The translations under genes were made by a program, and so were the position numbers. A DNA stretch of 53,137 nucleotides. Source: a virus (Duplodnaviria; Heunggongvirae; Uroviricota; Caudoviricetes). Each line of letters begins with the position of its first letter. The first letter of the stretch is position 1. The DNA is taken from IMG/VR virus record IMGVR_UViG_2645727867_000003; one strand, written 5' to 3'. The notes under the pieces are model-generated. The model was not told the DNA's origin. It saw nothing but the letters and a program-made list of their open reading frames with translations, and searched no databases. Of the stretch, positions 25,030 through 25,356 are shown piece after piece.

Positions 25030-25356
25030 TCAGGGTGCAGAAGGACTAAAGATAAACGTTTTCTTCACGCCTTTACGCGGCCTGTCCTTCTCAAATCGCC
25101 ATTTTGCCATCGCCTTTACAACCTGCTCATCAAACAGATGGTGTGGCTCTGAACGGATAAACTCAATTCGGGTGACAGTACCATCAGCACCAATATCAAA
25201 CTTCACATCAACCCGTCCCTTTATATAATTTGCCGCTGCATAGGCCGGATATTGTGGTAATGCCTTAACCAACTGTCGGGGCATATCTGTTTTATATTGC
25301 GTACAGCCCATAACCAGAGAAGACAACAAAATAATTAACGGAAGATTTCTTTTCAT
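25030..25356 (-). CDS. lipoprotein consisting of a TonB C-terminal-domain-like fold
   Basis: Signal peptide with lipobox-like LVMGC. The mature part (…YPAYAAANYIKGRVDVKFDIGADGTVTRIEFIRSEP…KAMAKWRF…) resembles the TonB C-terminal domain. Sits in the bor-equivalent position after Rz. Confidence 0.7.
   Translation of the reverse strand: MKRNLPLIILLSSLVMGCTQYKTDMPRQLVKALPQYPAYAAANYIKGRVDVKFDIGADGTVTRIEFIRSEPHHLFDEQVVKAMAKWRFEKDRPRKGVKKTFIFSPSAP

Follow-up and report, generated by a model that had tools for sequence, protein, structure and literature searches.

The E. coli prophage gene described here encodes a small lipoprotein that has, in its mature part, a complete TonB C-terminal domain (CTD), a match that lies far beyond chance. 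The gene is located at 25030–25356 on the minus strand of a 53,137-nucleotide stretch of viral DNA (the window; IMG/VR record IMGVR_UViG_2645727867_000003, Caudoviricetes), and it is intact and selectively maintained. We tentatively consider that this energy-uncoupled domain, held under the outer membrane, may compete with TonB at the TonB boxes of transporters, or bind the CTD of TonB itself, and thereby dampen TonB-dependent import. The parts of the gene are:

25030–25356, minus strand: coding sequence of the 108-residue lipoprotein with a TonB CTD, stop codon included (list of open reading frames, sequence, PGAP match)
25303–25356, minus strand: signal peptide (residues 1–17) and lipobox Cys18 (codon 25303–25305), read from the sequence
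25039–25281, minus strand: TonB CTD, residues 26–106, with the β3 edge strand at residues 94–103 (Pfam, TIGRFAM, PDB alignment, AlphaFold2, Foldseek)
25363–25366, minus strand: Shine-Dalgarno element GGGA, 6 nucleotides 5' of the ATG, read from the sequence

The domain is recognized by the Pfam family TonB_C (PF03544; E=5.8e-15, 55.9 bits against a cut-off of 24.6) and by the TIGR01352 profile (56.6 bits against a cut-off of 27.1), and a phmmer search of the PDB matched the CTDs of E. coli and Salmonella TonB at E ~3e-16. Residues 26–104 align without gaps to residues 153–231 of E. coli TonB, with 31 identities over 79 positions (39%); TonB numbering is hence the lipoprotein residue plus 127. 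An AlphaFold2 (AF2) model, built from a 21-sequence family alignment, has predicted local distance difference test (pLDDT) values above 90 over residues 22–108 and adopts the TonB CTD fold, a three-stranded sheet (residues 47–55, 60–70 and 94–103) against two helices (residues 38–42 and 76–84). A Foldseek search with the model gave as best matches the free TonB CTD (1u07) and the CTDs bound to BtuB (2gsk_B) and FhuA (2grx_C), with template modeling (TM) scores of 0.87–0.91 and root mean square deviation values of 1.1–1.4 Å; domain III of TolA appears only as a distant second tier among the PDB matches. Profile, alignment, model and structural comparison all agree, and they bear out the preliminary description of this DNA, which had proposed a small lipoprotein with the fold of the TonB CTD in its mature part. 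Tyr163, Pro164, Phe180, Gly186, Phe202 and Trp213 of TonB are identical in the lipoprotein, and Tyr215 is replaced by Phe. Strand β3 (residues 94–103, corresponding to TonB 221–230) is the final structural element; five residues follow it, and the region equivalent to TonB 232–239 is missing.

The ATG of the gene is at 25356–25354, and the product reads MKRNLPLIILLSSLVMGCTQYKTDMPRQLV...FIFSPSAP over its 108 residues. Several complete E. coli genomes hold the same DNA at 100% identity, and the coding sequence is identical to WP_021293099.1, which PGAP names 'TonB family protein'. The N-terminus has the build of a lipoprotein signal peptide, with a basic n-region and a hydrophobic core that precede the lipobox LVMG|C-T-Q (cleavage context MKRNLPLIILLSSLVMG|C). 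Cys18 is kept in all 21 aligned family members, and the residue at position +2, Thr in the window copy, is T, S or A throughout the family and Asp in none. By the Lol sorting rule for Enterobacterales, a lipoprotein without Asp at +2 is delivered to the outer membrane's inner leaflet. Because +2 is not Asp, the protein is predicted to be sorted to the outer membrane. The pLDDT values below 50 for residues 1–21 are those expected of a signal peptide and tether, and only about eight residues separate Cys18 from the TonB domain.

Two other parts of TonB have no counterpart in the lipoprotein: the N-terminal transmembrane anchor, in place of which there is a cleavable signal peptide, and the proline-rich spacer that spans the periplasm. 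As both are missing, the lipoprotein cannot couple to ExbB/ExbD or act as an energy transducer. The NCBIfam equivalog models for TonB (PRK10819) are not reached either, the best score being 72.9 bits against a cut-off of 315.

Relatives of the lipoprotein were collected by word-indexed and exhaustive searches, and by a scan of species-representative genomes. They form a subfamily of TonB_C lipoproteins, mostly of 104–133 residues, with the motifs P-x-YP-x-YA-x-x-N, SEP-x-HLFDD and KWRFE. The copies in E. coli prophages fall into two clades, a Stx-phage type that is 97–100% identical to the window copy and a phage 21 type at 71%. Further members are found in Klebsiella, Raoultella, Pantoea, Erwinia, Sodalis and Pseudescherichia; Proteus and Providencia gave weaker, partial family matches. 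In Raoultella and Klebsiella the gene is a single chromosomal gene near lacI, and in Pantoea it lies among metabolic genes; in a blastx comparison of all loci against the proteome of this prophage, phage genes adjoin the family gene only in Sodalis. A neighbor-joining tree (no bootstrap support) places the lipoproteins in a clade apart from TonB proper. Between the window copy and the phage 21 allele, the synonymous rate (dS) is 1.5 and thus saturated, and the ratio of non-synonymous to synonymous rates (dN/dS) is 0.13 in the signal peptide and the mature part alike. The gene is present in 415 of 5426 complete E. coli genomes and is full-length in 414 of these 415; the carriers include many Shiga-toxin-producing strains, as well as Stx1a-converting phages.

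An older database label, 'partial tonB-like membrane protein', would make the gene a decaying fragment of host tonB taken up by the phage, and frameshifted alleles of the phage 21 type do exist in databases. We give this explanation practically no weight. The dN/dS value of 0.13, the full-length state of the gene in 414 of 415 genomes and the clade apart from TonB argue for a functional gene of an old paralogous family, and the dedicated lipoprotein signal peptide is conserved in all clades. A recent capture of E. coli tonB was likewise rejected on account of the separate clade, the subfamily's own motifs and the chromosomal orthologues in other genera.

Several neighbors and distant relatives of the family were seen in the same searches. 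In Klebsiella and Raoultella, a co-oriented gene for a 142-residue glycine-zipper lipoprotein (Rick_17kDa_Anti; 7425–7853 in L002–L005, 6429–6857 in L006) precedes the TonB_C lipoprotein gene, as does a co-oriented gene for 123–136 residues with no Pfam match; together these may form a small envelope gene cluster. A 152-residue lipoprotein in the protein set (P0182) has the lipobox LAG|C, a linker of ~50 residues and a domain that is near TonB proper rather than the lipoprotein subfamily, which suggests that a lipid-anchored TonB CTD arose a second time, independently. The library of representative genomes also contains many proteins of 300–1300 residues with three to five tandem TonB_C stretches (P0058, P0060, P0066 and others) that resemble neither TonB nor the lipoproteins. 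A fragment 70% identical to the prophage lipoprotein lies on a 418-bp contig labeled as the actinobacterium Modestobacter excelsi (L022) and is most likely assembly contamination.

The region upstream of the family genes connects them to iron regulation. The 150 nucleotides upstream of each gene were scanned against the Fur consensus GATAATGATAATCATTATC. Matches of 14–17 out of 19 positions were found in 14 of 19 loci, representing ~6 independent lineages, and end 9–35 nucleotides before the ATG; the loci listed with strong matches are L002, L006, L014–L020, L023, L024, L028–L030 and L038. Scores are 15–16 in Raoultella and Klebsiella, 17 in Pantoea (L024), 16 in Erwinia typographi, 14–15 in Erwinia sp. 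S63 and Pantoea formicae, 14 in Pantoea deserta and P. bathycoeliae, and 17 in the Sodalis prophage copy. The layout is uniform, with a -10-like element, the Fur box, a Shine-Dalgarno element and the ATG in this order. A score of at least 14/19 is reached by only ~4% of the upstream regions of other open reading frames in the same loci, and a crude binomial estimate puts the chance of such matches in ~6 of ~10 independent lineages at roughly 1e-6. The chromosomal members of the family are probably Fur-repressed, and the predicted boxes tie the lipoprotein family to the iron/TonB regulon independently of the fold.

The corresponding region of the window contains:

25389–25416, minus strand: promoter-like site ATGACC-16 nt-TAGAAT with an extended -10 (TG at 25396–25397), from a consensus scan
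25373–25393, no strand assigned: perfect 8+8 dyad AGAATAAG-N-CTTATTCT (25377–25393) and a Fur-box-like 19-mer (25373–25391) that overlap the -10, by consensus match

The extended -10, TGTTAGAAT (25389–25397), is a consensus match that lies 32 nucleotides 5' of the ATG, and the -10 block TGT(T/C)AGAATAAGAC is conserved in phage 21. Transcription of the lipoprotein gene is expected as part of the late operon, and possibly also from this putative promoter of its own. The 19-mer, which stands at the site of the relatives' strong Fur boxes, scores 13/19, and a score of at least 13/19 arises by chance in ~7% of comparable upstream windows. The dyad is absent from the phage 21 allele, which itself scores 9–10/19; the phage 21 and Klebsiella phage copies together range from 9 to 12. 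It is possible that the window copy has a degenerate Fur operator.

How the domain could act follows from its predicted position. It would be held within a few nanometers of the periplasmic side of the outer membrane, the plane at which the TonB boxes of TonB-dependent transporters are exposed. According to PMC3602595 and PMC11658791, TonB boxes pair with β3 of TonB, and this pairing rests largely on backbone contacts. The lipoprotein might thus bind TonB boxes by β-augmentation on its free β3 edge, or pair with the CTD of TonB itself. Because the domain cannot deliver force, it would then compete with TonB, and TonB-dependent translocation would be dampened. A precedent exists in periplasmic TonB domains: when overexpressed, they inhibit the import of iron through the TonB system (Howard et al. 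2001, cited in PMC9841981). For the lysogen, the expected outcome would be tolerance to TonB-dependent phages of the T1/phi80 type and to group B colicins, paid for by somewhat reduced siderophore uptake. Infection by phi80 and killing by colicin M were reportedly inhibited as well by the overexpressed domains. Two outer-membrane lipoproteins of phages, Llp and Cor, act on FhuA at its periplasmic face (bioRxiv 10.64898/2026.03.26.714494), which makes a block from the periplasmic side of a transporter a viable exclusion strategy. Exclusion, decoy action or interference with iron uptake, as put forward in the preliminary description, would be plausible by analogy, and the Fur boxes of the chromosomal relatives reinforce the connection to iron.

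The receptor-binding domain at the C-terminus of the prophage J protein is of the lambda-J type (45% identical to lambda J), and phages of the phi80, T1 or N15 type were absent from the 40 records sampled among the 243 that matched this domain. The prophage's own receptor is thus probably not a TonB-dependent transporter, and self-exclusion was rejected on the strength of the J type.

A number of points weigh against competition at TonB boxes as the role of the lipoprotein. Residues implicated in the contacts of TonB with its receptors are altered: Gln160 is Leu and variable in the family, Arg166 is replaced by a family-invariant Tyr, and Arg158 is Lys and again variable. Exclusion need not be the ancestral role, since most members of the family are chromosomal and not associated with phages, and the lambda type of J means that it would act on unrelated phages and not on the prophage's own kind. 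The Fur-like dyad of the window copy is weak, and expression of this copy in lysogens is a prediction; the iron-starvation induction of the chromosomal relatives, which their Fur boxes imply, suits a pure inhibitor of iron uptake poorly. Full-text literature searches turned up no work on the function of a TonB_C lipoprotein, whether of phage or chromosomal origin.

Two other roles fit parts of these data. The lipoprotein could be a helper of TonB-dependent uptake, a fitness moron that recruits or positions TonB by forming a CTD heterodimer, or that pre-organizes the transporters, and so improves iron acquisition when the transporters are derepressed. Such a role agrees with the strong Fur boxes of the chromosomal relatives, which imply induction under iron starvation alongside the transporters, with purifying selection, and with a mainly chromosomal family that is conserved across Enterobacterales. 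However, the gene neighborhoods show no link to transporter or siderophore genes, in the sole experimental precedent free periplasmic TonB domains act as inhibitors, and the phage copies of E. coli and Klebsiella have weak Fur boxes or none, and we regard a helper as unlikely. A ligand outside the TonB system, such as peptidoglycan or other outer-membrane proteins bound through the TonB-CTD/TolA-III-like fold, with an effect on envelope stability or serum resistance like that of Bor/Iss, is more improbable still. The loss of the contact residues Gln160 and Arg166 would suit it, as would the location in the same general moron region as bor and the family-invariant Tyr39, Asn43, Ser69-Glu70-Pro71 and HLFDD motif, which differ from TonB; yet the Fur boxes point to iron and TonB biology, there is no homology to Bor/Iss, and the gene coexists with bor in phage 21.

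The window as a whole is a lambdoid, Stx-phage-like prophage with an integrase, CI/Cro-type regulators, Q, tRNA-Ile and tRNA-Arg genes and a nanS-p-type esterase, and with holin, lysozyme, Rz/Rz1, HNH, terminase, HK97-type head and lambda-type tail genes, J, Lom and a tail fibre. The lipoprotein gene shares the strand of all late genes and has Rz on one side and the HNH and terminase genes on the other. The features upstream of it are:

25949–26422, minus strand: Rz i-spanin with the Rz1 o-spanin embedded at 25990–26196, at the end of the lysis cassette (Pfam Phage_lysis, E=2.6e-39)
25701–25925, minus strand: open reading frame of 74 residues, outside the lipoprotein gene (PGAP 'hypothetical protein')

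The lipoprotein gene had been described as directly downstream of Rz/Rz1, which proved inexact: the distance from Rz is ~590 bp, taken up by the 74-residue reading frame and by ~330 bp of non-coding DNA. The reading frame covers only positions 100–172 of the 291 positions of phrog_2571 and is absent from O157:H7 prophages; with only the middle of the family matched, it is the remnant of a longer phage gene. A structured RNA in the 330-bp conserved leader was rejected, there being no Rfam match at E<=1 and a folding z-score of -0.96.

Nor is the position equivalent to that of bor, as the preliminary description had it. In the curated genome of phage 21, bor follows the spanins directly in antisense, and the 'TonB C-terminal domain protein', 71% identical to the window copy, is encoded further on, in sense, before cos. 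Phage 21 carries both genes, and the lipoprotein gene runs in the direction of the late genes; it therefore does not stand in for bor. In a Klebsiella phage and in the Sodalis prophage, the homologue closely follows the lysis genes. Phages and prophages of E. coli, Klebsiella and Sodalis thus have in common a conserved moron slot that lies past the lysis cassette and before the packaging genes.

The location bears on a further explanation, namely that the product is a lysis protein or spanin. The protein matches phrog_1267, which PHROG labels 'Rz-like spanin' in its lysis category, at E=1.7e-41, and the gene encodes a lipoprotein near the lysis cassette, with which it would be co-transcribed. 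By contrast, Rz and an embedded Rz1 are already there, the lipoprotein gene being a separate one ~590 bp past Rz; the globular TonB CTD fold is unlike a proline-rich o-spanin, the C-terminus (...TFIFSPSAP) is not hydrophobic and provides no transmembrane segment, hence no u-spanin, and the homologues occur as single genes on chromosomes, with no lysis cassette anywhere near. We therefore rejected the spanin function, which is extremely improbable, and the PHROG label of phrog_1267 is probably wrong.

On the other side of the lipoprotein gene, a YlcI/YnfO (DUF3950) gene on the plus strand (24698–24898) lies within the late operon and converges on it. The HNH endonuclease gene (24291–24656, minus strand) comes next and precedes the terminase genes. 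The early region at ~41200–42200 (36326–37266 in L001) holds RelE/ParE-type toxin genes with a helix-turn-helix partner and a hokD toxin gene, as annotated in RefSeq for an identical prophage.

A second lipoprotein of the same design is encoded in the window:

34911–35339, minus strand: 142-residue lipoprotein with lipobox LTTG|C and TolA domain III (Pfam TolA_C, E=5.7e-23; NCBIfam TolA)

Its C-terminal 88 residues correspond to E. coli TolA 333–420 (E=1.6e-25), and the gene lies directly downstream of the tRNA-Ile and tRNA-Arg genes, ~9.6 kb from the TonB-like gene, in agreement with the preliminary description. This is the slot in which Stx phages carry stx. The gene is adjoined by a gene for a 241-residue AraC-family regulator (HTH_18/HTH_AraC; 33490–34215, minus strand); the ~1.9 kb that follow the regulator (31628–33490) contain no annotated gene in the matching RefSeq record.

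The presence of both transducer tips as lipoproteins in one prophage had been taken as a sign of a coordinated strategy, a two-gene system that jointly closes the TonB and Tol import routes. Both genes do occur within one 10-kb stretch in ~30–39 of the 5426 complete E. coli genomes. Their distributions, however, are independent. Among phage records, 15 carry the TonB-like gene and one (mEp460_ev081) the TolA-like gene, and none carries both; among the E. coli genomes, 415 have the TonB-like gene, and the TolA-like gene is found in 108 as a close allele and in 772 as a diverged allele at ~82% nucleotide identity. Many prophages share the rest of the region and are without one of the genes, their matches starting at query position 481, 930 or 3462, or ending at 7596. 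The two genes also occupy different moron slots 9.6 kb apart, and tandem TolA-like genes occur without a TonB-like gene, as in a lambdoid prophage of strain AH25 (13455–14429 in L013), which has two TolA-C genes between Q and holin and iss after Rz. Obligate pairing was accordingly rejected, and a linked system, which is largely refuted by these counts, is very unlikely. The TonB-like and TolA-like genes are best regarded as morons that are independent of each other but follow one design.

A broader proposal, which we regard as somewhat doubtful, is that the two tethered tips are natural 'gate locks' of a dominant-negative kind, a class so far unrecognized; the TonB-CTD type and the TolA-III type would each suffice alone to blunt one import route, TonB- or Tol-dependent, that phages and colicins use. 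The TonB type would then be an old, Fur-controlled chromosomal device of the Enterobacterales, switched on when the transporters are derepressed, and repeatedly borrowed by lambdoid phages as a moron for exclusion or colicin tolerance.

A comparison with known systems places the lipoprotein more closely. With the TonB CTD (E. coli residues 153–239; 1u07, 2gsk, 2grx) it has in common the fold, the core aromatics, Gly186 and the β3 edge strand. It differs from TonB in its predicted lipid anchor at the opposite, outer membrane, in the absence of the transmembrane anchor, the spacer and TonB 232–239, and in forming a separate clade with the motifs YPxYA and SEPxHLFDD. The periplasmic TonB fragments engineered by Howard et al. 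2001 (described in PMC9841981) are likewise uncoupled C-terminal regions of TonB in the periplasm, and those are dominant-negative. They are soluble, overexpressed and contain at least 118 residues of authentic TonB, according to that same secondary account, whereas the lipoprotein is natural and lipid-tethered, with a diverged 83-residue domain whose activity is a prediction. Llp of T5 and Cor of phi80, N15 and HK022 are also small phage lipoproteins that sit in the outer membrane's inner leaflet and act on a TonB-dependent transporter at its periplasmic face, but they are FhuA-specific and allosteric, and the TonB-CTD lipoprotein is expected to recognize TonB boxes generically. No relation in fold to Llp or Cor was detected: BFVD gave no match at E<=0.001, and thus no viral structural relative, and the structural matches in the PDB were TonB and TolA domains only. 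PADLOC, a search for known defense systems, gave no match for the lipoprotein. Bor/Iss of lambda is a further small outer-membrane lipoprotein encoded by a moron to the right of the lysis genes; it has the opposite orientation and no sequence relation (Pfam gave only TonB_C and TonB_2 for the present protein), and another prophage has iss in that place and no TonB-like gene. The TolA-III lipoprotein of the window shares the combination of transducer tip and lipoprotein signal peptide and the status of a prophage moron, and differs in its domain family, its slot after the tRNA genes downstream of Q, its linker of ~35 residues and its independent distribution.

The homology to TonB is already annotated, by PGAP as 'TonB family protein' and in phage 21 as 'TonB C-terminal domain protein'; the older label cited above stands on phage ev017 and continues as '...encoded within prophage CP-933N'. 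What is new here is the confirmed fold, the lipoprotein subfamily separate from TonB, its mainly chromosomal distribution, the purifying selection and the probable Fur control of its chromosomal members, together with the rejection of bor-equivalence, of a spanin function and of a coordinated pair.

Should competition at TonB boxes be its role, the lipoprotein would act as a natural and generic brake on every TonB-dependent gate, unlike the receptor-specific Llp and Cor. It could then help to explain why lysogens resist TonB-dependent phages and group B colicins, and would be relevant to siderophore-antibiotic conjugates and to phage therapy via TonB-dependent receptors. The Fur boxes suggest that, in Klebsiella, Raoultella, Pantoea and Erwinia, the response to iron starvation includes the chromosomal relatives as a hitherto unstudied component.

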